Origin: Promethearchaeota archaeon
GTDB lineage: Archaea > Asgardarchaeota > Lokiarchaeia > Sigyniarchaeales > SOKP01
DNA length: 64,000 nt
Direction: 5' to 3'
NCBI GenBank assembly: GCA_048937405.1
Contig: JBHLNF010000002.1
Location: 384,001 to 448,000, forward strand
Shown piece after piece: positions 38,623 to 54,823 of the stretch (its first letter is position 1; every line of letters starts with the position of its first letter). Both the position numbers and the translations under genes were made by a program. A model generated the notes under the pieces. That model was not told the DNA's origin. It ran no database searches and worked only from the letters and a program-made list of their open reading frames with translations.

Positions 38623-40050
38623 TTATTTTTTGTCTTTTGGTAAATGGCCTATCTCTTCTCTAATAGATGGGGTTAAAAAGTCTTTTTCCGTAGGCTTATT
38701 TAATATCTCTAAAAGATTATATTCTGTGATCATTTGAAGGATTCCCAGAACTTTCATACCATGCTCGTACATATCGTTCGCATCGGACAAATTCCTCCAA
38801 CAAAATGGACACTCAGTTGTTAAAATATCCGCTCCAACAGCATTCGCTTCATCACATCGTAAACTTGCTGTTTTAAGTGAAAATTCAGGATATCCTGCCC
38901 TTACTCCACCTCCAGCTCCGCAACACATACTATCAATTTTTATTCTGTACATCTCTTTGAATACTAAACCTACATCCTCCTCAAGTTTTCTAAGAATGAT
39001 ACGTGGAACTTCATACCATGCTTCGATTGCTTTATCAATCGCTCGATGTTCTATTATAAGCTTCGTTGATTCTTTTATCATTTCTTGCTCCATATCGATA
39101 GCAAAATGTCTGCCTGTATGACAAGGATCATGATAAGTAACAACTTTTCCTTTCAATTCTTTGTTTGGTTTGAATTTGATTTTCTCTTGTTGCACTAATC
39201 TTGCAACAAGTTCAAATGCGTGTTGTGTTTTAAATGGAAGCTTCTCATCCTCACCCATCCATTTTGGATAATCGATAGTAAAAGTTCTATAACAACCTGC
39301 ACAACTAAAATAGACCATTTTGACATTCTTGAAAGCTTCGAGATTTTTTCTCATTAATTCCTGAGCGGTATCAACTGCCCCAATTCTAAAGAATGGACTT
39401 CCACAACATACTTCATCATCAACTAAGGTAAAATTCATCCCTAATTGCTCAAATAATTTAGCAGTTGCAATTGCTACTTCTACTTGACGATAACTAGCTG
39501 TACATCCAACGTAATAGGCAATTTTTGCATCCTTATTATCAATAAACTTTTCTAGTCCTGCATCCTTCGCCCATTTCATTCTTTCACTAGCAGCTCCACC
39601 ATATGGATTATTTCTTTCTTTGACTAATTTATCCACTACCTCATGTTTATCGATCATCGGTATACCAGCTTCTATACATGCTGCCCTCAATGATTCAATG
39701 ATATCAACAGTAGGAACCTTATTTTCACATTGCGCTGAGCATTGACCACATGTTATACAGGGTAAAAATACATCTCGCACTTCTTCACTAAATTCTAAAT
39801 CACCACTTAAAATCGAGCGAGCAATCCACATTTTACCGGCATTCCAGAAAGCTTCCCATCCATATTCTATTCCCGCAGGACATGCATCTACCATTCCTTC
39901 ATAAAGAACCGTTCCTTGCTTTCCTGCAAATTCTCCTATTCCCTCCCTATCAGGTTCATTCGAATAAGCAAATCTACATGCTTTACAATGAATACATTTA
40001 TAAACCTCTTTTTTTAATTCTTCTAATCTTTCCATTCCTGTTTTTGCCAT
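38623..40050 (-). CDS. Fe-S oxidoreductase, GlcF/HdrD-like (two [4Fe-4S] motifs + two CCG domains)
   Basis: CIHCKAC, CITCGQCSAQC, YYVGC, CCGSP, YHDPCH, CCGAGGG, ECPFC. Confidence 0.9.
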   Translation of the reverse strand: MAKTGMERLEELKKEVYKCIHCKACRFAYSNEPDREGIGEFAGKQGTVLYEGMVDACPAGIEYGWEAFWNAGKMWIARSILSGDLEFSEEVRDVFLPCITCGQCSAQCENKVPTVDIIESLRAACIEAGIPMIDKHEVVDKLVKERNNPYGGAASERMKWAKDAGLEKFIDNKDAKIAYYVGCTASYRQVEVAIATAKLFEQLGMNFTLVDDEVCCGSPFFRIGAVDTAQELMRKNLEAFKNVKMVYFSCAGCYRTFTIDYPKWMGEDEKLPFKTQHAFELVARLVQQEKIKFKPNKELKGKVVTYHDPCHTGRHFAIDMEQEMIKESTKLIIEHRAIDKAIEAWYEVPRIILRKLEEDVGLVFKEMYRIKIDSMCCGAGGGVRAGYPEFSLKTASLRCDEANAVGADILTTECPFCWRNLSDANDMYEHGMKVLGILQMITEYNLLEILNKPTEKDFLTPSIREEIGHLPKDKK

Positions 40051-40071
40051 TTTTTTATCAACCTCCTTTCT

Positions 40072-41562
40072 TTATGGAAGAGCAAGTCTCCCTGGGTGCA
40101 TTATCATATTTGGATCAACAAGCTTTTTAAAAGCCCTTAGATATTTCCAATACATTCCTGCTTGATAATACGCTTGTATATGAATGTATGGGTCTGGTCT
40201 ATAATTTAACCAACCTTGTTTTAACGCGTATTCTGTAGTCTCTCTATTTAATTCTTGAACTCTTTCGAAATCTGACTGTTTAGTGGAGTCAAAACCAATT
40301 ATAGGCATACATATCGCTTGTCTGCAACGCTCAATACTAGCTACCCAAATTGTAGGGGGAAGACCATGTTTCTCCGCCGCTTTTATATACATATCGCAAA
40401 AGTGAGCGCATTCATTCCATGGTGTATACCATGTAATAAAGAGAAAACCAGCTTCCCATAAACTATATGAAATTGCTAGTTTATTTGGCTTTTTCATTCG
40501 ACTTGCTATTTGTTTAGGATGTAATTCTTGTTTTACAAGAGCATCAGGATCTTTTGCTCGCTTTTTAAAATCTTCTGCTTGTTTGTCGATAGTCTCAATT
40601 ACATGCTCCAATTCGCTTTTTTCTTGAGCCCAAATCTCCCAATTCATCCACCATGGTGCAACTCCAAGTTCCTTATAGAATTCATAATCATGTGGGACTT
40701 TATCTTTTGGCCAGCGAGTCATAACTAAAGGATAATTTCCTCCCTGAACCATTACAGTATGATGAGCAATTCCAAACTCTTTTTTACCAACTTCAAGAGT
40801 TAAGTCTTGCATATCATAAGGATTCGACATACACCAGACAACTACAGTTTTATGTTTTGGGTGGGGATAAATTTTCACAGCAGCTTTAGTAATAACACCC
40901 ATAGACCCTTGAGAACCCATTAAATAACTCCACATATCAGGACCTAAACCATATTTATAAAATGGTTTAGCAAAAGGAAGTGCCCAAGATCCAGTTCGTA
41001 CTACATCTCCATTAGGGAAAACAATTTCTCCACACATAAAATTATCTCCCTGTGGACCAACTGAAGACGTATATAAAGAGAATCCCCGATCAATTGCATC
41101 TCCCATAACTGTCGCTGCTGGAGGTGCACCATCAGGAATAGGGGGTGCCCAATCTGGGTGGTTTTTATTCATATAAGCCCAGAGTTCCCCATTAGTAACT
41201 CCCGGTTCTATAATACAATATCGATTTTCCTCATCGATTTCAATGATCCTTTTCATTCTTCCTAAATCAAGAACAACTCCACCAGGTCTTATTGTAGGGC
41301 ATGCAAATCCTCCAGATAACCCACCGGAGATAGGACTTACAGGGATCTTTTCAGCAGAACAATAAATCAATATTTTGCGTATCTCCTCGACATATTTCGG
41401 TCTAATAACGATATTAGGAATCTGTGACTCTAATCCCATAACTGATTTTGCCAAATAACCCGCAGTAATTGCCTTGTTGTTTGTAGCAAATTCTTTACCG
41501 ACAATACCAATCATAGCTTCTAAATCTTTTTCATCTGGTAATTTATAGCTCATATTTTCCAA
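40072..41562 (-). CDS. FAD-binding oxidoreductase (GlcD/VAO family)
   Basis: GGVVLDLGRM, EPGVT, GSQGSMGVITK, C-terminal DPNMIMHPG; operonic with the GlcF-like gene; true start probably MSYKLP. Confidence 0.9.
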   Translation of the reverse strand: MENMSYKLPDEKDLEAMIGIVGKEFATNNKAITAGYLAKSVMGLESQIPNIVIRPKYVEEIRKILIYCSAEKIPVSPISGGLSGGFACPTIRPGGVVLDLGRMKRIIEIDEENRYCIIEPGVTNGELWAYMNKNHPDWAPPIPDGAPPAATVMGDAIDRGFSLYTSSVGPQGDNFMCGEIVFPNGDVVRTGSWALPFAKPFYKYGLGPDMWSYLMGSQGSMGVITKAAVKIYPHPKHKTVVVWCMSNPYDMQDLTLEVGKKEFGIAHHTVMVQGGNYPLVMTRWPKDKVPHDYEFYKELGVAPWWMNWEIWAQEKSELEHVIETIDKQAEDFKKRAKDPDALVKQELHPKQIASRMKKPNKLAISYSLWEAGFLFITWYTPWNECAHFCDMYIKAAEKHGLPPTIWVASIERCRQAICMPIIGFDSTKQSDFERVQELNRETTEYALKQGWLNYRPDPYIHIQAYYQAGMYWKYLRAFKKLVDPNMIMHPGRLALP

Positions 41563-41854: not shown

Positions 41855-42424
41855 TTATATTTCTTGAATTTCCTGATCTAATCCTATTTGGTTATATTCA
41901 CTATTAATATTAGAAAATGTCGAGAATTTTCTATGTTTATTATCATTTATAATGAATTTATGAAAAGTTTTATTTTGATCATCAATAAATTCTCTAAATT
42001 CTTCATAAATTTCTTTTAATGTCATTTTTCTATTATTTAGGGGGCCTTCTTGCTTGATACTTTTGTTTTCACTATTTTTTTCCTTATTTATAGGGACAAA
42101 TTTCACAATATCTCTATCATAAATTATTTGCTCAAATAGATCACGATCTTTATTATCAAATTGACTAAATGCTTTGACACCATTGCTTAAATTTTTTGTA
42201 CTTTCTTGGTTCAATTCCAAATCAACCTTTTGATATCCTCGAATTTGAAATTGATTGTCCATAAAAAATTGAAAGTGATGAGGGCAAATTAGACCTTTTT
42301 GGATTGAAATTGTAGTTAATCGAGAGTTTTTATTTATTTGTGATCTTGGTATACCAACAAGATCTCTGGTTTTACAGATTGGACAAATGACTTGAATCTT
42401 ATTTGTCTTTGTAATAATATTCAT
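41855..42424 (-). CDS. Zinc-finger-like hypothetical protein
   Basis: CPIC...CPHHFQFFMDNQFQIRGYQKVD, a motif type I recognise as common in Lokiarchaeia. Confidence 0.65.
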   Translation of the reverse strand: MNIITKTNKIQVICPICKTRDLVGIPRSQINKNSRLTTISIQKGLICPHHFQFFMDNQFQIRGYQKVDLELNQESTKNLSNGVKAFSQFDNKDRDLFEQIIYDRDIVKFVPINKEKNSENKSIKQEGPLNNRKMTLKEIYEEFREFIDDQNKTFHKFIINDNKHRKFSTFSNINSEYNQIGLDQEIQEI

Positions 42425-42535
42425 TAAGAATCACAAAATTAAATTAATTAAAAGTATTTTATATGTCTCTAAATTGGCATATTTAAACTTCTGCAATTCT
42501 CTCTTTTTATTAAAAATTCATTAAATCACAAAAAA

Positions 42536-43339
42536 TTATCTTCTTAAGAATATTTTCGATGAATACCTTATACCAATAAAGAGAAAGAATAGAGAAAAAA
42601 TTAGCGTTAAAGGCAATTGTCCTATTATAATGTAGGCGAAATTAGGTTCTGCTGAATAGAAATACAACGTAATGGTTACTCCTAAAAATATGAACGAATT
42701 TGTAAGGGCAATTTTCCAGTTTGGAGACAAAAATCCAAAAATTAAATTTGGAGGTAAAAACAGAATAACGATATTTGCTGTTGATAACAATATTAAAATT
42801 GGCATGAAAGTTGTGAATAATTGATCCGCGTTATAGAATCGGTTTAAATTAAAGTATTGAAAAATGAATAAAGTTGTATTTATACTCATAAAAATTAAAA
42901 AAAATGATAAAGGTCCAACGATTAACCATGATAATAGTGTCCTTATAATCGGTTTTTGCATTACTTTTCCTTTTAAATTATTATTAAATATTTCTTCCAT
43001 CTCCTCAGGAAAAATTAATTCTGGATTATAATCAGGAGAATATGAGTCAATAAAATCTTGCATCATATTTTTAAGAATTTTTGAAACTAATTCGTTATTT
43101 TCATTCACTCCTACAACAGCAGCCACGAGAAATCTTTCTTCTTCGTTAGGAACTAAAATTAGTTTATCATTCTCACCGAGATCAACATTTTTAACTACAC
43201 TTCCAAGAGCTTCTCTACTAAAATTAGCAATTGAGGAGAAGAATCCTATTAGAATATTTTCATCATATTTTTTTTCCATAAAATTTTTCGAATATAATAA
43301 AATTCCATTTTCATCTAAGAAATATACACTTTTTATCAT
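42536..43339 (-). CDS. Longin-like domain fused to four TM helices
   Basis: MIKSVYFLDENGILLYSK...LIGFFSSIANFSRE...LKNMMQDFIDSY, then 4 hydrophobic helices. Confidence 0.75.
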   Translation of the reverse strand: MIKSVYFLDENGILLYSKNFMEKKYDENILIGFFSSIANFSREALGSVVKNVDLGENDKLILVPNEEERFLVAAVVGVNENNELVSKILKNMMQDFIDSYSPDYNPELIFPEEMEEIFNNNLKGKVMQKPIIRTLLSWLIVGPLSFFLIFMSINTTLFIFQYFNLNRFYNADQLFTTFMPILILLSTANIVILFLPPNLIFGFLSPNWKIALTNSFIFLGVTITLYFYSAEPNFAYIIIGQLPLTLIFSLFFLFIGIRYSSKIFLRR

Positions 43340-43369
43340 ATTAATCTCTCAATTTATTAATTTTCAATT

Positions 43370-45115
43370 TTATTTATAATCTTGTTCAAAAAATTCTTTA
43401 TAATCCTCTAAAGATGCTTTAGATCTTTTAAAACTGAAAAGATATTTACCGAATAATTCTATTAGGCGAATTATCATCTTGTTTGGGTTATCTTTTAGAA
43501 ATATTTTATACTTTTCATTTTTTCTCTCTTCTTGAATTTTGGCTACTTCATCAAACTTATATAGTTTCTCAATTAATCTCTCATCCGGATTATTTAATTC
43601 TATGGTAATAATTTCACCTGATTGAGGCAATTCTTCAATTAATTTTTTGAATGTCCCAATTTTTGATTCTTTTTTACCAATGGTTAATATTTGATCACAA
43701 TTAGAAACAATTCCCTCTGGAGCATGAAAAATTAGAATTACATTAAATTTCTCTTTTATTTTTTCCATAGAATTATTGAATTTATCATATTCTAATCGAT
43801 CTAATATTTCAAAGGGAATAAAGAACATAATTATTGAAGGAAATTTTACCAAAGCTTTAGCAATTGAAAATAAAAGGAAATCTAAATGATTTAATTCTGA
43901 ACAACGCTTATTTTTCTTAAGTGATAATCCTGTAAGCTCTAAGGCATTTTTAATATACGATTTACCATGAATTAATCTCCTTGAAGGAGCTACGAATATT
44001 TCTCCAATTATCTCATCAATCCTAGGAACAAATCCCGCAGTTTTTAATATCAGTTGGAGTTTGGATTTTCGATTTTTCAGAATTCCTTTAATGTCAATTT
44101 TATATTTAATTGCTTTCTTGACTTTCATATTTAATATTTTTGATTCATGCGCCTGAGGTAATATTACTATTTTTTCTAAATCTTTTCTATTTAAAAATTG
44201 AACCTCTTTTCCAAAAATTTCAATATTCCCAAAAAAATCAGAAAAATTCCCAGCAATACTCCAAAAAAGATAAAATAAATCATATTTATGTTCTGTATCA
44301 GATAATAGTTCTTCATCATAAAGAATCCCTATTGATTTTCCTCTGTGAATCCTGAAAGAAACATTTTGTATTCCATTCTCTATAGAGACATTTTTCAATA
44401 TTAAGTGTTGAGAATTTGGTCCTAATCTATCTAATTTTAACCGTTTTTCGATTATATTACAAATTACCTCAATTATTTGATAAATGTGGGGGGGATTTAG
44501 TTCATTCCAATTTTTAATTATATCTTCTTTGATAAAATCTCTTTCACTTATAATCTTTGAAAGTGTTCTTGAAAAGGAAAATAATGGTATAAGAGGGTAT
44601 TTTTCAAAATTTATATGTAATTTAATCACAAAATAAGGAAAAGAAATTCTAAATTCTCTATTATAAGGATTACTATCAACCATATAATTTTCAAATCTCT
44701 CATCTAATAACTCAACTTCTCTATCAAGTAGCATTATATGATTTTGAAATTCCTTTCGAATGAGGTTCCTCATACGTTCGATGATTTTTTTAGGACTAAC
44801 TAGTCCATCCTCATCGAAATCAGGATCAACAATAATTTCATTAAAATCAAATTCATCTATAAGGGGTGTATAAATTTTTAATAAAGGTACTCCCTTGTCC
44901 TTTACATCCTGATTAGTAAAGAATAATACTTCGATAAAAGATTTTTTATAGATTAAATTTAAAATTGAAGCAATACCAAAAGTGTTTTCTCTATATGTCA
45001 TCCAAAAACGTCTAGAAAATCTGACAGCATCCAAAATTTTCAGTCTAAGACGCTCTAATTCAAGGTTTCTAGAGGGCTTAAAAAATTTAGATTTCTTCAA
45101 ATCCTTAGATTTCAT
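43370..45115 (-). CDS. RWD/UEV-like domain(s) fused to a catalytically degenerate ABC ATPase
   Basis: LDREVELL...IKLHINFEKYPLIPLFSF...IKNWNELNPPHIYQII; ABC fold cues (NVSFRIHRGKSIGI, GNIEIFGKEV, LPQ, IAKALV, CDQILTI) but Walker A, signature and Walker B are lost. Confidence 0.7.
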   Translation of the reverse strand: MKSKDLKKSKFFKPSRNLELERLRLKILDAVRFSRRFWMTYRENTFGIASILNLIYKKSFIEVLFFTNQDVKDKGVPLLKIYTPLIDEFDFNEIIVDPDFDEDGLVSPKKIIERMRNLIRKEFQNHIMLLDREVELLDERFENYMVDSNPYNREFRISFPYFVIKLHINFEKYPLIPLFSFSRTLSKIISERDFIKEDIIKNWNELNPPHIYQIIEVICNIIEKRLKLDRLGPNSQHLILKNVSIENGIQNVSFRIHRGKSIGILYDEELLSDTEHKYDLFYLFWSIAGNFSDFFGNIEIFGKEVQFLNRKDLEKIVILPQAHESKILNMKVKKAIKYKIDIKGILKNRKSKLQLILKTAGFVPRIDEIIGEIFVAPSRRLIHGKSYIKNALELTGLSLKKNKRCSELNHLDFLLFSIAKALVKFPSIIMFFIPFEILDRLEYDKFNNSMEKIKEKFNVILIFHAPEGIVSNCDQILTIGKKESKIGTFKKLIEELPQSGEIITIELNNPDERLIEKLYKFDEVAKIQEERKNEKYKIFLKDNPNKMIIRLIELFGKYLFSFKRSKASLEDYKEFFEQDYK

Positions 45116-48100
45116 TAACTTTTGGCACCTCCATTGCTTTATAACGAAAATATTGTTCCATTTTTGAATCTATTTGTTTTACTTCTTTAATTGATTCTTT
45201 TCCCATCTCTTCTTCTATTTTTTCAACCAACATATCGATATTTAAATTAGTGAAAATTGAATAATTTGTACCTACTTTATTTTCTAAGACTTTATCAATC
45301 CCTTCAATCCCTTCGAGTTTATTAATTACATTTTCTTTTATATTTGTAAATTCAACTTCAATCGATCTTCCCTTTCCAGGTAAATTAACTAAAAGTGATT
45401 TAGGCTGTCCAAAATCTATCATTCCACGCTTTCGACCAAAGATAGCAACTAGATTACAAAATCTAGACTCTTCAGGATAGTGGGTAATAACAACTAATGT
45501 TGTATTGAATTGCTCATTAATCTTAGTTAATACAAGCCATAAGTTTTCTCGTACAACAGGATCCAAACCGCTAGTTGGTTCATCTAAAATTAAAAACATC
45601 GGTGAATGCATTAGTCCTATTGCAATACTAACTCTTCTTTTTTGCCCACCAGAGAGATTTTTAACGTACTCATCTATTTTATCCTCAATTTCTAGGCTGC
45701 GTAAAATTCGCTTCGCTCGACTCATAATCTCTTTTTCTGTAAGACCATACTGGCTTCCAAAATATAATAAATTTTCAAACGTGGTAAAATTATGATAAAT
45801 TTTACCTAAATCTTGAGGAACATACCCATATATTGGTCTAATTCTTCTTGAAATTCTTCTATTCATATTCATTCCATAAATTTGACAAAATCCAGTAATT
45901 TTTCTCATACCTAATAAACCTTTAATAAAGGTTGATTTCCCTGCACCGCTCTCTCCTAAAATTCCTAAAATTTTTCCATGCTTTACATTCATAGAAACGG
46001 AATCAACTATTAATTTTCCTCCTGCAAAAATACTTAAATTTTCACAATTAATTGCGGGAAATTTTTTTAAATAGGATTCATTAAGTTTCCCTCCAAAACC
46101 AAATAATAATTTAATTCTTTGTGGTATAGAAAGCCGTTGATAGAGTTTAAACAATATAAAAAATCCAATACCCGCAGCTTCAATAAGCAGAATATATGTT
46201 AATAAAAGGTTCCAAGGTTTTGAATCAAAACTTTGATCATATTGCAATTCATCTACAATAACAATTGCATTAGCCATATTTCTTAAATCACCTCCAAATC
46301 CTGGATTATCACCCACTCCTCCTGTATTAAAACTAATACATTGAATATACCAATTTAAAGTAGTTTTTATATTTTCTGGCTGAAATCTGTAGTCATAAAG
46401 CCCTTTTGATCCAAAATAAGTAATCATAAAGTTGGATGGTAAGTCAAGATAAGCCCCAAAAGCGGGTAAAACTAAAAACGAGCCATCTGAAGTTTGTGAG
46501 TTCTTTAGAAACTCGATGGCGGCTATTTTAGCCATTGGCTCAGAATTTAATAAATCAGTGAAAATTTCCAATCCATAATAAGTTGAAATAACATCACTAT
46601 GGAAGCCTATAAATAAAGAAAATCCACCATCTGGATTTTGACATGATCTCATCCAATGAGTAAGATTAACATGATTGATATTATCTAAATCATTGATTAC
46701 TTCCAACGAATATAAAGCCCAATACGTGCTTTCCATAGTTGACATATTTGAATTAATTAAATATATCAGTATTTGATAAACTGCTCCATACATGTTTAAA
46801 ACTGCTTCTACATCCTGACCCACACTAAATCCACCATCTGGATTTTGAAGATCGACTAAATAATTTGTAATATTCCCAATCTCATCATCTTCAGGCCATT
46901 TATTTGTAAAAGGAAAAAGGATTTTATAAATATTTAATCCACAATAGGTAGCATATAAAGTGGCATTTTCACCAGGAGAGGATGAAAATCCACCATTATA
47001 AGGATTATAACATCTATCAACAAAATTTGTTATGTTTTTCAATATTTCTTCATTCATAATCTCTTTATTTATAAATTCAGTAAATATTTCAGGATTATAA
47101 TTATAAAGGGCTGAGATCCCGTTAAAATTTGCTTCAATTGTAGTGCTTCCAAATAATGAATTTTGTCCTTGAAAAAAATGAAGCCATTCATAATAATTAA
47201 GAGTTGCTTCTCTAATATCAGCAAGGTTACTTTCAGTTAAGGACTCTAATTTGAGACTATCAATTGACTTCATAGCAGCCCACCCTGATATAAAATCGGA
47301 ATTATCATTCGAAATTGGATTTGAACGAAAACCTCCATCTCCATTTGAACAATTAAGTATAAAAGAAAGAGTCTTTTGTTCATCAAATAGCAAAGGATTA
47401 TATAAACCTAATCTCCTTAATGATGATAAAGCATAATATGTCGATTGGACATCAGAAGGTCCACCTAAAATATTAGAAAAACCATAATCTATAACATTAT
47501 ATAGCGAATTAAAATAGGTATAAATAGCCGACAATTCTGCAGAAGAATAGGTCATATTCATTCCTAAAAATGCTTGAATGCCATAATAGGTTGATTCGGC
47601 TGTTGCTACACTTAAAGCATCATTTGTCAATTTATAACTTCCTACTAGCCATGTGGAATTAATATATTTTGAAATATTATCATTTCTAAGGATGAAATCA
47701 CCATTTAAAATATTAGCTAAATCAATAGCACATGAAGTAGATCTTAAATCAGTAATATTTAAAAAGGGAATTAACTTAAATCCCCCTTCTTTTTTGTTCA
47801 GTGAATTATTTAGATAATTTAAAATATTGTCTGTCTGATTTTGCTGAATTTTATTTAGCAAATATGATTGATTTGCAATCTCTAAAGTCTTTATTGCTTG
47901 ATATGTAGAAATCATATTTCCCAATCCACCTATATCTGAATATGAACCATCTATATTTTGTTTTTCAAAAATATAATCAAAGAATATATTTGGTTTATAA
48001 TCTTTTACATGTTTATTCGAAATATCATTTGGATTTACAAGATCTGAAGAATATAATTCAACAAACGTAAAATTTATTGAATCAACTGCTCTAAAATTTG

Positions 48101-48308
48101 AATCTAAAGTTGGTTCTATGAACAATCCATCATCATTTTGATGTGTCCATGTGAAAAAAACAGCATTGTCTTTAATGAATTGAACATCTTCATTTTTAAT
48201 ATATTCAATATAAGGAATATTAACTAGAATAATAGATATAATTGGAACACCTACTAGAATTCCCAAAACCAAGATATTTTTTAGCAATCGTTTTGTTTTG
48301 TGACCCAA
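45105..48308 (-). CDS. Prenyltransferase/squalene-cyclase QW-repeat barrel + TM + ABC ATPase fusion
   Basis: N-terminal TM; repeats KQNIDGSY, CSNGDGGF, LQNPDGGF, CQNPDGGF, SQTSDGSF with STY(Y/W)(A/G) helices; TM near residue 705; GESGAGKST, LSGGQKRR, LILDEPTSGLD, ITHY. Confidence 0.88.
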   Translation of the reverse strand: MGHKTKRLLKNILVLGILVGVPIISIILVNIPYIEYIKNEDVQFIKDNAVFFTWTHQNDDGLFIEPTLDSNFRAVDSINFTFVELYSSDLVNPNDISNKHVKDYKPNIFFDYIFEKQNIDGSYSDIGGLGNMISTYQAIKTLEIANQSYLLNKIQQNQTDNILNYLNNSLNKKEGGFKLIPFLNITDLRSTSCAIDLANILNGDFILRNDNISKYINSTWLVGSYKLTNDALSVATAESTYYGIQAFLGMNMTYSSAELSAIYTYFNSLYNVIDYGFSNILGGPSDVQSTYYALSSLRRLGLYNPLLFDEQKTLSFILNCSNGDGGFRSNPISNDNSDFISGWAAMKSIDSLKLESLTESNLADIREATLNYYEWLHFFQGQNSLFGSTTIEANFNGISALYNYNPEIFTEFINKEIMNEEILKNITNFVDRCYNPYNGGFSSSPGENATLYATYCGLNIYKILFPFTNKWPEDDEIGNITNYLVDLQNPDGGFSVGQDVEAVLNMYGAVYQILIYLINSNMSTMESTYWALYSLEVINDLDNINHVNLTHWMRSCQNPDGGFSLFIGFHSDVISTYYGLEIFTDLLNSEPMAKIAAIEFLKNSQTSDGSFLVLPAFGAYLDLPSNFMITYFGSKGLYDYRFQPENIKTTLNWYIQCISFNTGGVGDNPGFGGDLRNMANAIVIVDELQYDQSFDSKPWNLLLTYILLIEAAGIGFFILFKLYQRLSIPQRIKLLFGFGGKLNESYLKKFPAINCENLSIFAGGKLIVDSVSMNVKHGKILGILGESGAGKSTFIKGLLGMRKITGFCQIYGMNMNRRISRRIRPIYGYVPQDLGKIYHNFTTFENLLYFGSQYGLTEKEIMSRAKRILRSLEIEDKIDEYVKNLSGGQKRRVSIAIGLMHSPMFLILDEPTSGLDPVVRENLWLVLTKINEQFNTTLVVITHYPEESRFCNLVAIFGRKRGMIDFGQPKSLLVNLPGKGRSIEVEFTNIKENVINKLEGIEGIDKVLENKVGTNYSIFTNLNIDMLVEKIEEEMGKESIKEVKQIDSKMEQYFRYKAMEVPKVNEI

Positions 48309-48313
48309 ATCAA

Positions 48314-49315
48314 TTATTTTCTAATCACCTTTAAATCATTCGAACTAATTATTTTTTCTTCCTCTTGTAAAATTCTAATTTGAAAGTATCTTCTAAAAGT
48401 AGCGAGATCTTTACTCATTGAAGTTATGATAATATTATTATCTAACATATACTCGATTAATTTTGATAAATTTTCCTCATAATTTTCCATTAGAACCTCA
48501 ATTGCTTCATTTCCTACTCTTATTATTCTTCTTATAGACGGAAATTTCTCAATAAATGCAATTATTTTTTCATTTAGATTTTGAATTGTAAACCTTGCTA
48601 TTAATCCTTCACTTGGTAAGGAAGATATTAGGTTTTGAGAGGTATCAAACTCTAATAACCTTCCATCTCTTAAAATTGCTGCTTTATCACATATTAATGC
48701 AGCTTCTAAATCATGAGTAATTATAAACATCGTCGTATTTAATCTTTGGTTTAGTTTCTTTAAATAGCTAAGTATATCATAGCGTTTCGAGGCATCCACG
48801 CCAGTAGTAGGCTCGTCTAAGAACAAAACATCTGGATTATGAATTAAACCGATAGCCATTGACAATCGTTTCTTTTCTCCACCGCTCATTTTTTCAACTT
48901 TCTTTTTCCAAGTATCTTCTGGAATATCAAGGATTTTAAACAATTTTTTTGCTATTTCTTTTGCATTTTTTTTATTCATTCCATATGTAGAGGTAAAGAC
49001 CTCAACGTTTACCATTGGATCTAATTCGAAATATAAATTTAACATTTCAAGTTGTGGAACATATCCAATATTGCTGAGAATCTTTGAATGATTACTCTTT
49101 TTATCAGGAGATAAACCAGTAACTTTAACTTCTCCAGACCAATTTTTTTTTTCAATTTGACAGGTCATTACTCTGACTATGGTTGTCTTTCCTGCTCCTG
49201 AAATTCCAAATAAGCCTATAATTTCTCCTTTATCAACAGTAAAGCTAACGTCATGAACAACATGTTTTTCTCCAAATTTAACATTTAAATTTTTTACATC
49301 TACCATCCTTTTCAT
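48314..49315 (-). CDS. ABC transporter ATP-binding protein
   Basis: GISGAGKTT, YVPQ, MSGGEKKR, LFLDEPTTGVD, ITHD. Confidence 0.95.
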   Translation of the reverse strand: MKRMVDVKNLNVKFGEKHVVHDVSFTVDKGEIIGLFGISGAGKTTIVRVMTCQIEKKNWSGEVKVTGLSPDKKSNHSKILSNIGYVPQLEMLNLYFELDPMVNVEVFTSTYGMNKKNAKEIAKKLFKILDIPEDTWKKKVEKMSGGEKKRLSMAIGLIHNPDVLFLDEPTTGVDASKRYDILSYLKKLNQRLNTTMFIITHDLEAALICDKAAILRDGRLLEFDTSQNLISSLPSEGLIARFTIQNLNEKIIAFIEKFPSIRRIIRVGNEAIEVLMENYEENLSKLIEYMLDNNIIITSMSKDLATFRRYFQIRILQEEEKIISSNDLKVIRK

Positions 49316-49336
49316 TGTTTCAAGAGAACTAATTGC

Positions 49337-50626
49337 TTACACCTCATATTTTCTCCTTTTAAATATTATAAATGATACCATTGTCAAGATAGAACTAATA
49401 GCTAATAACCAAAAGAAGTGTAATCCCAGAATTGATTGACCTTTTTGAATTATACCGCGAAGTAAGGGATCTCCATGAGATAGAGGCAAAATATATGCAA
49501 TAACTTGCAAATAGGGAGGCATACCTTCAATAGGAATAAAAATTCCACTTAAAAGAACGGCAACAAGAAAAACAGCAAGAAATAACTGATTTGCTTGAGT
49601 CTTTGTTTTGCTCATTGAGCTAATAAAAACTCCCATCGTCAATCCAGAAAAACCAATTATGAATAGAGCAAGAAATAAATCTATTAGAGTACCCGCTATA
49701 TATAATCCCATTGATAAACCACTGATTAGCAATAAAGTAACTTGAAATAATAATACTAGAGTATATGTAATATATTTAGATATTAAAATTTCTGATCTCT
49801 TTACTGGAGTGAGTAATAATCGCGCAATCGGTTTCTCTTGAACAATTACTAATATTGATAATACAAAAGCGATACCAAAAACCATAAATGAAAGGGCCAT
49901 TACAATACTAGAATTGAAATTATGACTATATCCTTCAGGAATAATAAATTCTTCAAATCCATGAAGTTCAAATTGGGGTGTAAGATTATTCTCATTTACA
50001 AATATCTTAATTGAATCATAAACGGCGTTAAGACTCTGTTGAATAAACTGAATTTCTGAGGCATCTGGAACACAATCAATCAATCCTGGTAAACCAAATT
50101 TAAGTAATTCAGTAAAATCGACAGGCAAAGATAGAATAATTGAGATCTCCCCAGATATTAGAGCGTTTCTGGCTGTTTCCATTGCATATATCTCTTCAGT
50201 TGCGTTATAAAATTGAACTAAATCAAGCATAACCGACTTATTTACAGCCTCTACATATGGTATGGTATAATTATCTAAATATGATTCTGTTAAATCATTT
50301 TGGTTAATAACTATATTAGAATCGTATGATATTAACATACAAGGAATTGATTGCGTTTCGGGAGGTGTATCTGTCATTGTAAACCCTAACATAACTATTA
50401 TTAAAGGAGGTAACACGATAGCAAGCAGGAGATTAAATTTATCAGTCCATAAAAGTCTAAATTCTTTTTTAACCTGTTTTAAGATTCTTAGAGCGTTATT
50501 TTTTGATTTTAAAATTTTTTCAATAAATTTATTAAAATCAGGTTTTAGATTGGATACTTTACTTTTTACCTTCTCAAAATTTGGCTTGATTTTAGAATAC
50601 TTCTCTTTAATCTTTTTTTTATCCAA
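49337..50626 (-). CDS. ABC-2 family permease with large extracellular loop
   Basis: KEFRLLWTDK, TM1, ectodomain, RLLLTPVKRSEILISK, LSGIFIPIEGMP, LPLSH. Confidence 0.92.
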   Translation of the reverse strand: MDKKKIKEKYSKIKPNFEKVKSKVSNLKPDFNKFIEKILKSKNNALRILKQVKKEFRLLWTDKFNLLLAIVLPPLIIVMLGFTMTDTPPETQSIPCMLISYDSNIVINQNDLTESYLDNYTIPYVEAVNKSVMLDLVQFYNATEEIYAMETARNALISGEISIILSLPVDFTELLKFGLPGLIDCVPDASEIQFIQQSLNAVYDSIKIFVNENNLTPQFELHGFEEFIIPEGYSHNFNSSIVMALSFMVFGIAFVLSILVIVQEKPIARLLLTPVKRSEILISKYITYTLVLLFQVTLLLISGLSMGLYIAGTLIDLFLALFIIGFSGLTMGVFISSMSKTKTQANQLFLAVFLVAVLLSGIFIPIEGMPPYLQVIAYILPLSHGDPLLRGIIQKGQSILGLHFFWLLAISSILTMVSFIIFKRRKYEV

Positions 50627-50657
50627 CCTTAAAGGTTTTTTTTTAATCTTAACTATA

Positions 50658-51812
50658 TTACACCTCTAATTTCTTAAACATGTAGATGAAATATGCTAAT
50701 GATGCATAAATTAAAGAGCTTAAATTAAGCCAAAATATACTAATTAAATTAGGAGGTAATCCTTTTAATGTTATTTCAGTTATCAATGGAACTGCATTTG
50801 ATAATGGAAGCATATTCATAAAAATTTGTATACCTCCTTCCGTATCACCTAAAGGAAGTATACTTCCCGAAAAAAGTATTATAATAATAAACATAATTAG
50901 ATACATTTGATTAGCACTTTGTTCTGTAGGGCTTAATGCAGAAATAAATAACCCAATACAGATTCCACTAAAACCGATCATTATAAGTACTAAAAAGAAA
51001 TAAAATAATGAACCCAAACTATACAATCCAAAAAATGCAGTTAAAATAAAAATCTCTGTGGATTGAAGTAGCATAATTGCAGAATTAGCAATTAATTTAC
51101 TTAAAATGATTTCTCTTTTAGCAGTTGGAGTTATAAGCATTCGAGGAAGTGGACCCTCGGAGACTATTGAAAGAGAAGTTAAGTTCATAGTTGTTCCAAG
51201 AATTATAATGGGTAGAATTAAAGGGATTGCATAATTTAAAATTGCTGATTCCCAAAAAGGGACATCAAATTCTAAATAAGGCACCATAATAGTAAAATTT
51301 GCCATCATATCTGTCTGTGCTCTAAATAATGCTATAGGTTCTTGAATTGCAACTTCAACTGCTGTTATTGCCGCGAGATCAGAAGCATCAATATGATATA
51401 TCAGAATTGGATTGGATTTATTCTCAACTAACTCTGAAAAATTACTTGGTAAAACAATAATTATATCTATATCTCCACTTCTTAAGAGTTCATAACAAGT
51501 CTGGTATGCATTTTCGTATTCATCTAAATTAGTAGCATTATAATAACCATGAAATCCCCATGATGAGGTACTATTTTGCATTATTGATATGAAAGTTTCA
51601 TCATATTTTGAAGAATTCGTAGGAAAGTCATCATATGTAGGCATATCATCGAGTGTGATAATAGCAGATGTAAAAAATTTTGTAAGACCCCCCCCAGTAG
51701 TTAAACCAAAAACTAAGATTAGTAATACAGGAATTATAAATATTAAAATTAATGTTCTTTTATCTGCTCTAATTCTACCAAATTCCTTTCGTATTAATCC
51801 GCCTAGATACAT
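50658..51812 (-). CDS. ABC-2 family permease with large extracellular loop
   Basis: KEFGRIRADK, RMLITPTAKREIILSK, FSGSILP, LPLSN. Confidence 0.92.
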   Translation of the reverse strand: MYLGGLIRKEFGRIRADKRTLILIFIIPVLLILVFGLTTGGGLTKFFTSAIITLDDMPTYDDFPTNSSKYDETFISIMQNSTSSWGFHGYYNATNLDEYENAYQTCYELLRSGDIDIIIVLPSNFSELVENKSNPILIYHIDASDLAAITAVEVAIQEPIALFRAQTDMMANFTIMVPYLEFDVPFWESAILNYAIPLILPIIILGTTMNLTSLSIVSEGPLPRMLITPTAKREIILSKLIANSAIMLLQSTEIFILTAFFGLYSLGSLFYFFLVLIMIGFSGICIGLFISALSPTEQSANQMYLIMFIIIILFSGSILPLGDTEGGIQIFMNMLPLSNAVPLITEITLKGLPPNLISIFWLNLSSLIYASLAYFIYMFKKLEV

Positions 51813-52107: not shown

Positions 52108-53502
52108 ATGAAAGAACTTGATTTTTTTTTTGATCCTAAATCAGTTGCAATAATTGGGGCTTCAGATAATTATAAATTCGGATATGCTACAACAAAATAT
52201 TTATTGAACTCAAAATTTAAAACATATCCAGTTAACCTCAATAAGCAAGAGATTCATGGACATAAAGTTTATAAGAACATAAAAGATATTCATGAAGATG
52301 TTGAATTAGCGATAGTCCTTGTTGGTAATGAATATGTTCTTCAAGTTGTTAAGGATTGTATTGAAAAGGGTGTAAAAGGGATAATAATAGAAACAGCCGG
52401 TTTTGCGGAGACAGGATTAAAAAAATATATTAATATTCAACATCAAATTGAAAAAATCGCTAAAGATTCAAAGGTTCGAATTATAGGTCCCAATTGCATA
52501 GGAGTAACTAATTTTAATAATCAGTTTTCTTCAGCAGATATGGATTTTGATAAAGCGATTAAAGGATCAATTGCAGTTATAGCTCAATCAGGTGTTTTAG
52601 GAAATATCTTTGTTGATTGGGCTCAAGACAAAGGTATTGGATTTTCAAAAACCATTACAATAGGAAATAAACTAGATGTTGATGAAGTTGATATGCTTAA
52701 TTATTTGAATGATGATCCCGAAACTAAAATTATTACTCTCTATTTAGAAGGCACAAAGCGTGGAAAAGAATTTATAGAGACACTCAAGAATATGAAAAAA
52801 CCAGTAATAATACTTAAAAATGGGAGAAGTGAAATTGGCTCTAAAGCTGTTAATAGTCATACAGGATCACTAGCGGGGAATGACAAAATTTATGATGCTG
52901 CTATCAAACAAAATTCTAAAATTTTTCGAGTTAAAAATTTCTATGAAATGTTTACTATTGCTCATATTTTTGATACTCAACCTTTACCTAGAGGGAAAAA
53001 TATAGCAATAGTAACGGGATCAGGAAGTTTAGGTGCTTTAGCATGTGATGAGATTGAAAGACATGGATTAAATCTTGCGAATTTAAGTAAAAACACAGTC
53101 TCACTTATTAAATCCGTGATTCCTAATTGGGTTTCAATTAGAGGTACCATAGATTTAGGACCGTCTTTATTTCAGACATTTGTCACCTCTATGAAAGCAA
53201 TTTTTGAAGATAAAAATGTTGATGCTATATTATACATTTTTTCAGTCCCTCGGTGGCCACTACAACTTAGGGGCTCTATGGCCTCAGAATGGGCAATTCA
53301 ACAATTTAATATAGTAAAAAAGTTAATTCAGGAATTTAATAAACCAATTGCTTGCGTATGCTTTGGATCGAGATGGACATTTGAATTTCTTAGAAAAGCA
53401 GAATCATTAACCAATCCTGAAATTAAAATTCCTATAATTAGCAGAATAAAACATGCTATTAAAGCTTTTAAAATCATGCATGAATACAATTTAGAACTAT
53501 AG
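52108..53502 (+). CDS. Acyl-CoA synthetase (NDP-forming) alpha subunit / CoA-binding protein
   Basis: PKSVAIIGAS, IIGPNCIG, AQSG, GNKLD, LYLEG, phospho-His motif SHTGSLAG. Confidence 0.9.
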   Translation: MKELDFFFDPKSVAIIGASDNYKFGYATTKYLLNSKFKTYPVNLNKQEIHGHKVYKNIKDIHEDVELAIVLVGNEYVLQVVKDCIEKGVKGIIIETAGFAETGLKKYINIQHQIEKIAKDSKVRIIGPNCIGVTNFNNQFSSADMDFDKAIKGSIAVIAQSGVLGNIFVDWAQDKGIGFSKTITIGNKLDVDEVDMLNYLNDDPETKIITLYLEGTKRGKEFIETLKNMKKPVIILKNGRSEIGSKAVNSHTGSLAGNDKIYDAAIKQNSKIFRVKNFYEMFTIAHIFDTQPLPRGKNIAIVTGSGSLGALACDEIERHGLNLANLSKNTVSLIKSVIPNWVSIRGTIDLGPSLFQTFVTSMKAIFEDKNVDAILYIFSVPRWPLQLRGSMASEWAIQQFNIVKKLIQEFNKPIACVCFGSRWTFEFLRKAESLTNPEIKIPIISRIKHAIKAFKIMHEYNLEL

Positions 53503-54223: not shown

Positions 54224-54823
54224 TCATATCAGTATATTATTTCTAAAATATCTTTTGCTGATGTTATAATATAAATAGAATACTAAGAGGTAATGAATTA
54301 GTATACAAAAGATTATTCCAAAACTTAGAAACATATAGCCAAGGTATAATCCCATTAAGAAAGGATATATCAAGTTTACTAATAAAAGTGTTCTATTTTT
54401 ATATGAAAACCATGCATGGAAATGATATAATGAAAAGATTAGGCTTGAAATAAAAATAACAGACAGATCATCTAAATTTAATGAATTTATCAAGATTCCA
54501 ATTAGATAATACCTAAAAATTAATTCTTCCATAATCATTGTTAATGGTAAAAATATCAATATGATTTTTCTATTATTTCCTTCAATTAAAGCATTTGTAA
54601 CATCATGTTTCCGCATCAATTCGATATTATCCTTATTGAAAATAAAAATTTCAATAAATTTTCCTATGGTTAGAAGAATAAGTAAACCAAAGAGTAAAAA
54701 TAAAATTATAAAAAGATTAAATTCTCTGATTACAAGATATCTAACATTAAAGCCAAAAAATATTGGAATAAACAATAATATAGATACAAGAGTAATAATT
54801 GTGTATTTATTAGAGTTTTCCAA
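54224..54823 (-). CDS. CPBP (Rce1/Abi-like) intramembrane protease
   Basis: MEELIFRY, FSLYH, LIH motifs. Confidence 0.85.
   Translation of the reverse strand: MENSNKYTIITLVSILLFIPIFFGFNVRYLVIREFNLFIILFLLFGLLILLTIGKFIEIFIFNKDNIELMRKHDVTNALIEGNNRKIILIFLPLTMIMEELIFRYYLIGILINSLNLDDLSVIFISSLIFSLYHFHAWFSYKNRTLLLVNLIYPFLMGLYLGYMFLSFGIIFCILIHYLLVFYLYYNISKRYFRNNILI

Follow-up and report, generated by a model that had tools for sequence, protein, structure and literature searches.

With which partners do the longin and E2-fold domains of Asgard archaea work? Both count among the eukaryote-like proteins of these organisms, where their partners are almost unknown. According to one paper (PMC10933270), longin and GTPase genes generally lie outside operons, so that genome layout rarely reveals what they work with. 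The question is raised anew by a stretch of 64,000 nucleotides (nt) from a Promethearchaeota archaeon of the Lokiarchaeia (contig JBHLNF010000002.1, positions 384,001 to 448,000), referred to here as the window, which has a GC content of 27-30% and lies on contig C28 of a 4.47-Mb genome; close homologues bear database names that likewise point to Lokiarchaeia/Promethearchaeota. The analysed part of it, positions 41855-51812, holds seven minus-strand open reading frames (ORFs) in the ORF listing of the window, and the first six of these form a conserved cassette that ties a membrane-anchored longin protein and an E2-like pseudo-ATPase to an ABC transporter of the ABC-2 type. This combination of modules is real and undescribed: full-text searches of the literature found no description of the operon, its fusions or its composition, in line with the preliminary description of this DNA, which knew of no account of the combination, and the database names of its proteins include ‘ABC-2 type transport system ATP-binding protein’ or ‘hypothetical protein’. 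While the ABC-2 transporter base is already known, the set of accessory modules is unprecedented.

Read along the minus strand, the genes follow one another as permA, permB, NBD1, PT_NBD, psNBD, lng4TM and the gene of a Zn-finger protein, NBD standing for nucleotide-binding domain. They are separated by 31, 21 and 5 nt, an 11-nt overlap between the end of PT_NBD and the start of psNBD, and then 30 and 111 nt, and the ORF listing thereby reproduces the coordinates and all the spacings of the co-oriented, tightly packed genes reported in the preliminary description. A T-run follows the stop codon of lng4TM and precedes the AT-rich 111-nt spacer in front of the Zn-finger gene; apart from it, inspection of the intergenic DNA (27% GC) by eye gave nothing informative.

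The order permA, permB, NBD1, PT_NBD, psNBD, lng4TM is found with all six genes in six genomes of the same genus, at 66-89% identity, and a seventh (G016, a short contig) carries PT_NBD, psNBD and lng4TM only, at 59-67% identity. The cassette also occurs in family f2 (in G037, across two contigs, and in G170), in family f4 (G029), in three contigs from metagenomes or metagenome-assembled genomes (MAGs) at about 50% identity, and in another order of Lokiarchaeia (G169) at 24-51% identity. The flanks of the three contigs are unrelated, consisting of a histidine kinase with an RNase H, of FAD enzymes and of a sugar kinase. Across the loci, neighbouring cassette genes overlap by 4-70 nt or are separated by a few nucleotides. 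Because the six-gene order recurs amid different flanks, the genes are regarded as one cassette, whose architecture is well supported; a chance juxtaposition was considered and is ruled out by the synteny in many genomes with different flanks. The survey of gene order in these Lokiarchaeial genomes thus upholds the arrangement first described for a core of six genes, and not for the seventh. The Zn-finger protein (41855-42424, minus strand, 189 amino acids, CxxC...CPHH) matches no Pfam or NCBIfam family, although C14, C17, C47, H49 and H50 are invariant in six same-genus orthologues. Its gene occurs in same-genus loci only (in G008 it flanks the cluster at the opposite end), and none turned up in five more distant loci, which places it outside the conserved cassette, against its inclusion in the preliminary description. 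Distribution is patchy: an orthologue of Lng4TM is present in 78 of the 133 genomes of the family, but in 22 of the 53 genomes of the genus, and the cassette is an accessory one.

The core of the cassette is a transporter of familiar make. PermA (50658-51812, minus strand, 384 amino acids) and its paralogue PermB (49337-50626, minus strand, 429 amino acids) are permeases of the ABC2_membrane families with six transmembrane (TM) helices, and they share 29-33% identity with each other. PermA matches Pfam ABC2_membrane_3 at E 1.4e-25 (90.6 bits, cut-off 31.6), while PermB matches both ABC2_membrane_3 (E 3.8e-23, 82.6 bits, cut-off 31.6) and ABC2_membrane (E 3e-21). Hydropathy gives PermA a TM1 at residues ~20-38, an outward loop of ~150 amino acids and then TM2-6, and gives PermB a cytoplasmic N-terminal extension of 65 amino acids and an outward loop of ~160 amino acids after TM1. 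Orthologues of PermA are 79-89% identical within the genus and 40-62% identical in distant loci. NBD1 (48314-49315, minus strand, 333 amino acids) is a soluble ABC ATPase that matches ABC_tran (E 5.8e-25, 88.9 bits, cut-off 25) and NCBIfam drrA (E 1.8e-56), and it carries a DrrA-type C-terminal domain and the motifs GISGAGKT, MSGGE, VLFLDE and ITH. NBD1 and PT_NBD each have the full set of motifs (Walker A, Q-loop, signature, Walker B, H-loop), and the NBDs of these two proteins are the only motif-competent ATPases of the cassette. Among solved chains, the nearest to NBD1 are the NBDs of ABCA3 and ABCA1 (E 7e-40), and the nearest to the membrane domain of PermB is an insect ABCG23-like transporter (E 2.3e-11); the kinship with ABCA and ABCG transporters suggested at the outset thus holds at the level of sequence.

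These proteins resemble the type V ABC transporters (bacterial ABC-2 exporters of the DrrAB, NodIJ and YbhFSR/RbbA type as well as the eukaryotic lipid exporters ABCA, ABCG and ABCH) in having ABC2_membrane permeases whose TM1 and TM2 are joined by a large loop, DrrA/ABCA-like NBDs and, behind the NBD, a C-terminal domain of regulatory type, and the cassette further resembles ABCA proteins in placing a large extracellular domain over the permease. It differs from type V systems in that this ectodomain belongs to neither permease, being a double alpha/alpha toroid that forms part of an NBD chain and is flanked by two additional TM helices. A third NBD chain, which is dead, and a longin protein in the membrane set the cassette apart as well. 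Some variation was seen in the core genes. NBD1 is split into two ORFs in two metagenomic loci (L065:2476-5060 and L069:552-4118); L065 moreover has a TPR gene separating permB from NBD1, and L069 has a divided permA too and a longer psNBD call, of 896 amino acids. Such split genes and variants may be decay, assembly errors or real variants.

How the core is put together is suggested by a relative. In other Lokiarchaeial families, a sister ABC-2 system of four genes (L022-L031, e.g. L022:6318-10329) encodes a plain NBD, a permease, a second permease and a protein in which a soluble domain is joined to an NBD. This decorated protein has about 600 amino acids and consists of an unassigned soluble N-domain of 270 amino acids and an active NBD, which is the nearest relative of the NBD of PT_NBD, with 38-46% identity to it against 31-34% to NBD1. 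The four-gene layout and this NBD kinship together indicate that the core comprises a pair of permeases and two distinct active NBDs, and from the analogy we infer an assembly of two permeases with two NBDs, one of which would be that of PT_NBD.

PT_NBD (45105-48308, minus strand, 1067 amino acids) consists of TM1 (residues 11-29), two tandem alpha/alpha toroids (~35-700), TM2 (701-719), an NBD (~750-975) and a C-terminal domain. The match to Prenyltrans is strong (E 1.9e-36, 126.5 bits, cut-off 26.5) and falls in four stretches, as is the match to ABC_tran (E 6e-27, 95.3 bits, cut-off 25). Since the halves 30-380 and 380-720 each match Prenyltrans separately, the region is read as a tandem double toroid; Prenyltrans and SQHop_cyclase are the only Pfam families that the ectodomain matches. 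Basic residues border the hydrophobic segments towards the N-terminus and towards the NBD, and on account of the TM segments and these positive-inside charges residues ~35-700 are placed outside the cell. The toroids are therefore predicted to face outward, and the ectodomain proposed in the preliminary description is upheld as a prediction of this kind. N-glycosylation sequons number 14 in the ectodomain against 10.3 +/- 2.7 in shuffled sequences, which is not above expectation, so that they are of no help for the topology.

In its alpha/alpha-hairpin repeat with a Q-x-x-D-G-G-F motif, PT_NBD is like the beta subunits of prenyltransferases and the class II terpene cyclases, and the best solved relatives of its toroid are the beta subunits of RabGGTase and farnesyltransferase (E 3e-13 to 1e-6). 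Its catalytic features are different. Across 17 orthologues, down to 35% identity, no His is invariant in the ectodomain, which speaks against the Zn triad of prenyltransferases, and a regular-expression search of residues 1-720 found no DxDD (or DCTAE) cyclase motif. Unlike protein prenyltransferases and class II terpene cyclases, the domain is extracellular by prediction and forms a double toroid that has neither Zn triad nor DxDD. A protein prenyltransferase is, moreover, a cytosolic alpha/beta heterodimer, whereas the toroid of PT_NBD sits between TM segments in a cassette without an alpha-subunit gene. The lack of an invariant His and of DxDD fits binding rather than catalysis, and the toroid would accordingly be a binding module, not an enzyme. 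The same 17 orthologues share an invariant cluster (C657, G664, G666, D667, F671, G672, D674, R676 and N677) in the last toroid repeat before TM2. As a candidate functional site, or as the place where the permease loops make contact, residues 657-677 (encoded at window positions 46278-46340) come first. Homologues of PT_NBD fall into 159 database clusters; among the matches listed, 120 of 120 have Prenyltrans and all except one partial entry have ABC_tran, and the named ones are all Asgard MAGs.

The gene overlapping the end of PT_NBD encodes psNBD (43370-45115, minus strand, 581 amino acids), a soluble protein recognized from its predicted structure as a dead NBD with two N-terminal subdomains. 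Its AlphaFold model (pLDDT 83) divides into subdomain 1 (~16-100), subdomain 2 (~108-226), the NBD (233-495) and a C-terminal domain (500-580). The NBD fold is evident from the VIA comparison of residues 233-495 with CbiO and numerous further ABC ATPases (Z 19.8), and the closest NBD relative is the NBD of PT_NBD. Walker A, signature and Walker B are gone, while the His of the H-loop is kept. The same motifs have likewise disappeared from orthologues at 24-37% identity, including class-level ones, which indicates that the loss is ancient. Lacking both Walker A and signature, psNBD can complete no consensus ATP site with any partner and is, as judged from its motifs, an extra, non-catalytic subunit. 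The count of three NBD-type chains for two permeases in the preliminary description is thus borne out, with one of the three dead. Conservation is nonetheless substantial, with a mean column identity of 63% over 33 sequences.

The N-terminal region of psNBD is harder to place, as psNBD has no Pfam family and this region finds no match even at E 10. Subdomain 1 has the secondary structure alpha, three strands, alpha, strand and no profile match, resembling the E2 type only in this pattern. Subdomain 2 is modelled as H108-140, E142-146, E149-158, E163-169, the stretch KYPLIP, E178-181 and H211-226; Y173, P174 and P177 are invariant or nearly so and are followed by W...PPH and a helix. In the model, this order of elements (helix, four strands, YPxxP, W...PPH-helix) is that of E2 and RWD domains. 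No Cys is found between strand 4 and W203 in any of 31 sequences, so that the catalytic Cys of an active E2 is absent. hhalign of either subdomain against 29 canonical Asgard E2s gave nothing significant, a fold search with the whole psNBD model returned NBD matches only, and a protein-language-model look-up of residues 1-232 gave sub-threshold leads only (UFC1 clusters, 0.77 and 0.75).

A transitive chain of profiles leads further. When the profile of psNBD 1-235 was compared with 1.84 billion representatives, 40 proteins were found, mostly orthologues or their fragments; four of the weakest (P0275, P0277, P0278 and P0279) have Pfam-significant UQ_con and/or RWD domains in tandem arrays. One such family is represented in the present genome by L040 (G000 contig C18:109400-111079, outside the window), a protein of 560-568 amino acids depending on the start, in which some four UBC/RWD-like domains follow one another (Pfam finds UQ_con at E 2e-10 and RWD at E 5e-7, and hhalign adds two inner repeats) and a Rubicon-homology/RING-like Zn region lies at the C-terminus; the family is present in 22 of the 31 genomes searched, the present one (G000) included. 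In hhalign, canonical E2s match segment A of the L040 family, its Pfam-positive UQ_con segment, at 94%, segment A matches the inner repeats, segments B and C, at 98% and 97%, and psNBD ~166-230 matches segment B at 97% (E 2.5e-11) and segment C at 95%. An E2-fold pseudo-enzyme domain is therefore a fair description of subdomain 2, as far as profiles and model go. It resembles UEV/RWD pseudo-E2s and the Asgard tandem UQ_con/RWD family in its E2 order and in having no catalytic Cys, and differs from UEV/RWD pseudo-E2s in that no significant match links it directly with canonical E2s or with Pfam RWD, UEV or UQ_con. Of the RWD/UEV call in the preliminary description, the E2-like part thus stands for residues ~108-226 through the profile chain, whereas the assignment to the RWD or UEV family is not established, for want of any direct match. 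Among the 1.84 billion representatives, fusion of such an E2-like region to a dead ABC NBD is confined to the psNBD family, and the N-domain of the sister system's decorated NBD has no detectable kinship to the psNBD N-domain. Between the two subdomains lies a near-invariant PDFDEDG loop (psNBD residues 98-104, window 44804-44824) that resembles a DxDxDG calcium-binding loop. The N-domain profile, compared with the sequences of the PDB, gave weak matches to calmodulin EF-loops only (EF-hand 4, E 0.2-2), and the loop is without the position-12 Glu of a canonical EF hand.

The longin protein Lng4TM (42536-43339, minus strand, 267 amino acids) was recognized from its predicted structure and a fold search, and its clear longin fold is the cleanest domain result of the analysis, albeit one obtained on a model. 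In that model (pLDDT 80.6), residues 1-126 run strand-strand-helix-strand-strand-strand-helix-helix and are followed by four TM helices; DSSP places the elements at E2-9, E14-19, H27-40, E51-55, E58-65, E70-77, H82-100 and H111-122. The top Foldseek matches are AP sigma/mu, TRAPP Bet5/Trs23 and zeta-COP (E 2.7e-4 to 1e-3), with roadblock proteins ranking far lower. In the VIA comparison of residues 1-126, the best 50 rows are all of longin type (Z 13.7-11.5 over 110-122 residues, root-mean-square deviation 2.3-3.6 Å) and include VAMP7, Sec22b, Ykt6 and synbindin. The fold proposed in the preliminary description, which had called this protein a longin with four TM helices, is thus borne out both by these scores and by the order of elements. 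At the sequence level, no Pfam longin family passes its threshold, the only match being Intu_longin_1 at E 0.045 and 14.4 bits (cut-off 23.7), and none of 150 database homologues bears a family name. The longin domain is placed in the cytoplasm, because there is no signal peptide and the C-terminus is basic.

Sec22a and Sec22c have several TM helices. They are without a SNARE motif (PMC2779197) and belong, like the phytolongins, to the non-SNARE longins of eukaryotes, which Lng4TM resembles, as it does the longin-SNAREs Sec22b, VAMP7 and Ykt6, in being a membrane-anchored protein with an N-terminal longin domain. The structural match to the longins of VAMP7, Sec22b and Ykt6 reaches Z 13.6-11.9. 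Lng4TM differs from the eukaryotic longins in having no SNARE motif, a sequence kinship below threshold and a gene that stands inside an ABC operon. A further locus, in G033 (L098:9311-10947, GC 55%), has a 267-amino-acid gene like the C-terminal half of psNBD beside an Lng4TM-like gene (27-29% identity), and no toroid or permease gene was found in the ~19.5 kb fetched around this pair. That the pair stands alone suggests that psNBD and Lng4TM work together. A complex prediction of full-length psNBD with Lng4TM 1-130 scored 0.00 and was weighed neither for nor against binding. Two observations concern the genes that follow lng4TM elsewhere. In one metagenomic lineage, a convergent gene of the Arf/Ras GTPase family stands right after it (L067:11140-11424 and L068:11140-11652), and no such gene was seen in the other independent contexts of the cassette. 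In G169, and in this lineage only, a VWA and RING-finger protein and a VTT/DedA membrane protein are encoded downstream on the same strand (L099:10470-12796). Members of the DedA family have been linked to lipid scrambling and to the recycling of polyprenyl phosphate.

What do these six proteins do together? The reading that we favour, and to which we give about even chances, is that they form a single type V ABC exporter or floppase whose toroids hold a hydrophobic substrate and which psNBD and Lng4TM regulate from the cytoplasm. Its engine would be PermA and PermB with a heterodimer of NBD1 and PT_NBD, the decorated NBD having acquired a TM-toroid-TM module in the present cassette. Such a transporter may export or flop a hydrophobic substrate, plausibly an isoprenoid-based lipid or a polyprenyl-linked compound, and the extracellular toroids would receive or hold this substrate as a non-catalytic binding module, ATP-driven movement of the NBDs possibly being passed to them through TM2. 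On the cytoplasmic side, psNBD and Lng4TM would form a regulatory or scaffolding sub-module that docks on the transporter and, without hydrolysing ATP, gates or localizes it. Both the class of substrate and the contacts between subunits are inferred. A lipid or isoprenoid transporter had already been suggested in the preliminary description; such a substrate may be read from the kinship of the toroid fold, and the toroid shows neither Zn triad nor DxDD. Several points weigh against the favoured reading. The toroid aligns with prenyl-binding enzymes over generic repeat motifs only and not over the Zn-ligand region of the RabGGTase beta subunit, and the alpha/alpha-toroid superfold also binds corrinoids, glycans and proteins. 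NBD1 is broken by frameshifts in two metagenomic loci, and the cassette is absent from more than half of the same-genus genomes and must be dispensable.

Could the row of genes encode two machines instead? PermA and PermB with an NBD1 homodimer would then be an ordinary ABC-2 exporter, and PT_NBD, psNBD and Lng4TM a separate device for mechanotransmission or signalling, similar to MacB, LolCDE or FtsEX, in which nucleotide-driven motion of the NBDs changes the shape of the extracellular toroids, or a ligand bound outside is signalled to the cell interior. We consider this unlikely, though several points speak for it: the genes of PT_NBD and psNBD share 11 nt, psNBD has its closest kin in the NBD of PT_NBD, the two TM helices of PT_NBD and the four of Lng4TM would make a six-helix membrane part, the psNBD-like and Lng4TM-like pair of G033 stands without permeases, and motif-dead NBDs are typical of regulatory or asymmetric assemblies. 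In type VII ABC systems, an NBD is coupled through TM helices to an extracytoplasmic domain that does its work outside the membrane, and PT_NBD, with its NBD linked through TM helices to a large extracytoplasmic domain, is analogous to MacB, LolCDE, FtsEX and BceAB in this respect. The cassette differs from them in its ABC-2 permeases and in an ectodomain chain with only two TM helices, and none of the seven proteins matches FtsX or MacB_PCD at E 0.1. A PT_NBD/psNBD dimer would, besides, have no complete consensus ATP site; the sister system pairs its decorated NBD with a plain NBD and two permeases; and, the G033 remnant aside, the three genes never occur without permA, permB and NBD1 in the loci examined.

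The folds of the accessory proteins invite another explanation, already offered in the preliminary description, of a transmembrane signalling hub that is built on ABC proteins and connected to networks of ubiquitin-like proteins and small GTPases, in which the E2-like domain binds a ubiquitin-like modifier or an E3, the longin recruits an Arf/Rag-type GTPase and the state of the transporter is coupled to both. The longin of Lng4TM is closely similar to the GTPase-platform longins of the TRAPP, AP and CPLANE complexes, subdomain 2 of psNBD is related to the tandem UQ_con/RWD family, and the convergent Arf/Ras gene and the VWA-RING gene each follow lng4TM in one lineage. However, the genes next to the cassette in independent contexts include no conserved GTPase, ubiquitin, E1 or E3 gene, the E2-like domain is devoid of Cys and does not match canonical E2s directly, and, with dozens of GTPases in Lokiarchaeia (MK-D1 has 74 sequences related to small GTPases; PMC10933270), an occasional adjacency is expected by chance. 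The proposed wiring finds no support beyond the domain folds, and we regard it as very improbable. Slightly less probable still is that the toroids capture a scarce nutrient or cofactor, e.g. a corrinoid, outside the cell and so serve uptake or salvage and not export. The alpha/alpha-toroid superfold does include cobalamin binders, transcobalamin having an alpha6/alpha6 barrel; the ectodomain is non-catalytic by motif; and the cassette is accessory and patchy, as nutrient systems often are. Yet ABC-2/type V permeases with DrrA/ABCA-like NBDs are overwhelmingly exporters or floppases, and the ectodomain, with matches to Prenyltrans and SQHop_cyclase only, shows no Pfam Cobalamin_bind or DUF4430; nor is a riboswitch known here, although no search was aimed at one.

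The surroundings of the cassette in the window are metabolic. On one side, a FAD_binding_4 oxidase and a CCG/4Fe-4S subunit of the glycolate/lactate oxidase-like type are encoded at 38623-41562 (minus strand), and on the other, the alpha subunit of an ADP-forming acyl-CoA synthetase at 52108-53502 (plus strand); no functional tie of these genes to the cassette is evident. An Rce1-like CPBP membrane protein of the CAAX protease type is encoded at 54224-54823 (minus strand; E 7e-13), 2.4 kb from the cassette, and its gene was not seen beside the cassette in distant loci. A PADLOC scan gave generic ABC-ATPase matches only, and hence no link to a defence system.

The conserved gene order ties a longin protein and an E2-like pseudo-ATPase to an ABCA/ABCG-like transporter with an outward toroid. 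A more specific proposal, namely an ABCA-like lipid exporter with a membrane-anchored longin and an E2-fold pseudo-ATPase that control, from the cytoplasmic side, how active it is or where it sits, appears to us quite unlikely; if true, a prokaryote would link the bulk movement of isoprenoid lipids to modules of the trafficking type, which could bear on the protrusions or membrane remodelling of Asgard archaea and on how non-SNARE membrane longins such as Sec22a and Sec22c arose. If the accessory proteins merely regulate an ordinary exporter, the cassette would still represent a new ABC architecture, with a membrane-tethered NBD-ectodomain protein and a third, dead NBD. The cassette is of moderate to high interest for Asgard cell biology, and it offers an expressible complex for two questions, the ligand of an archaeal longin and the ABCA-type movement of isoprenoid lipids in Asgard archaea.

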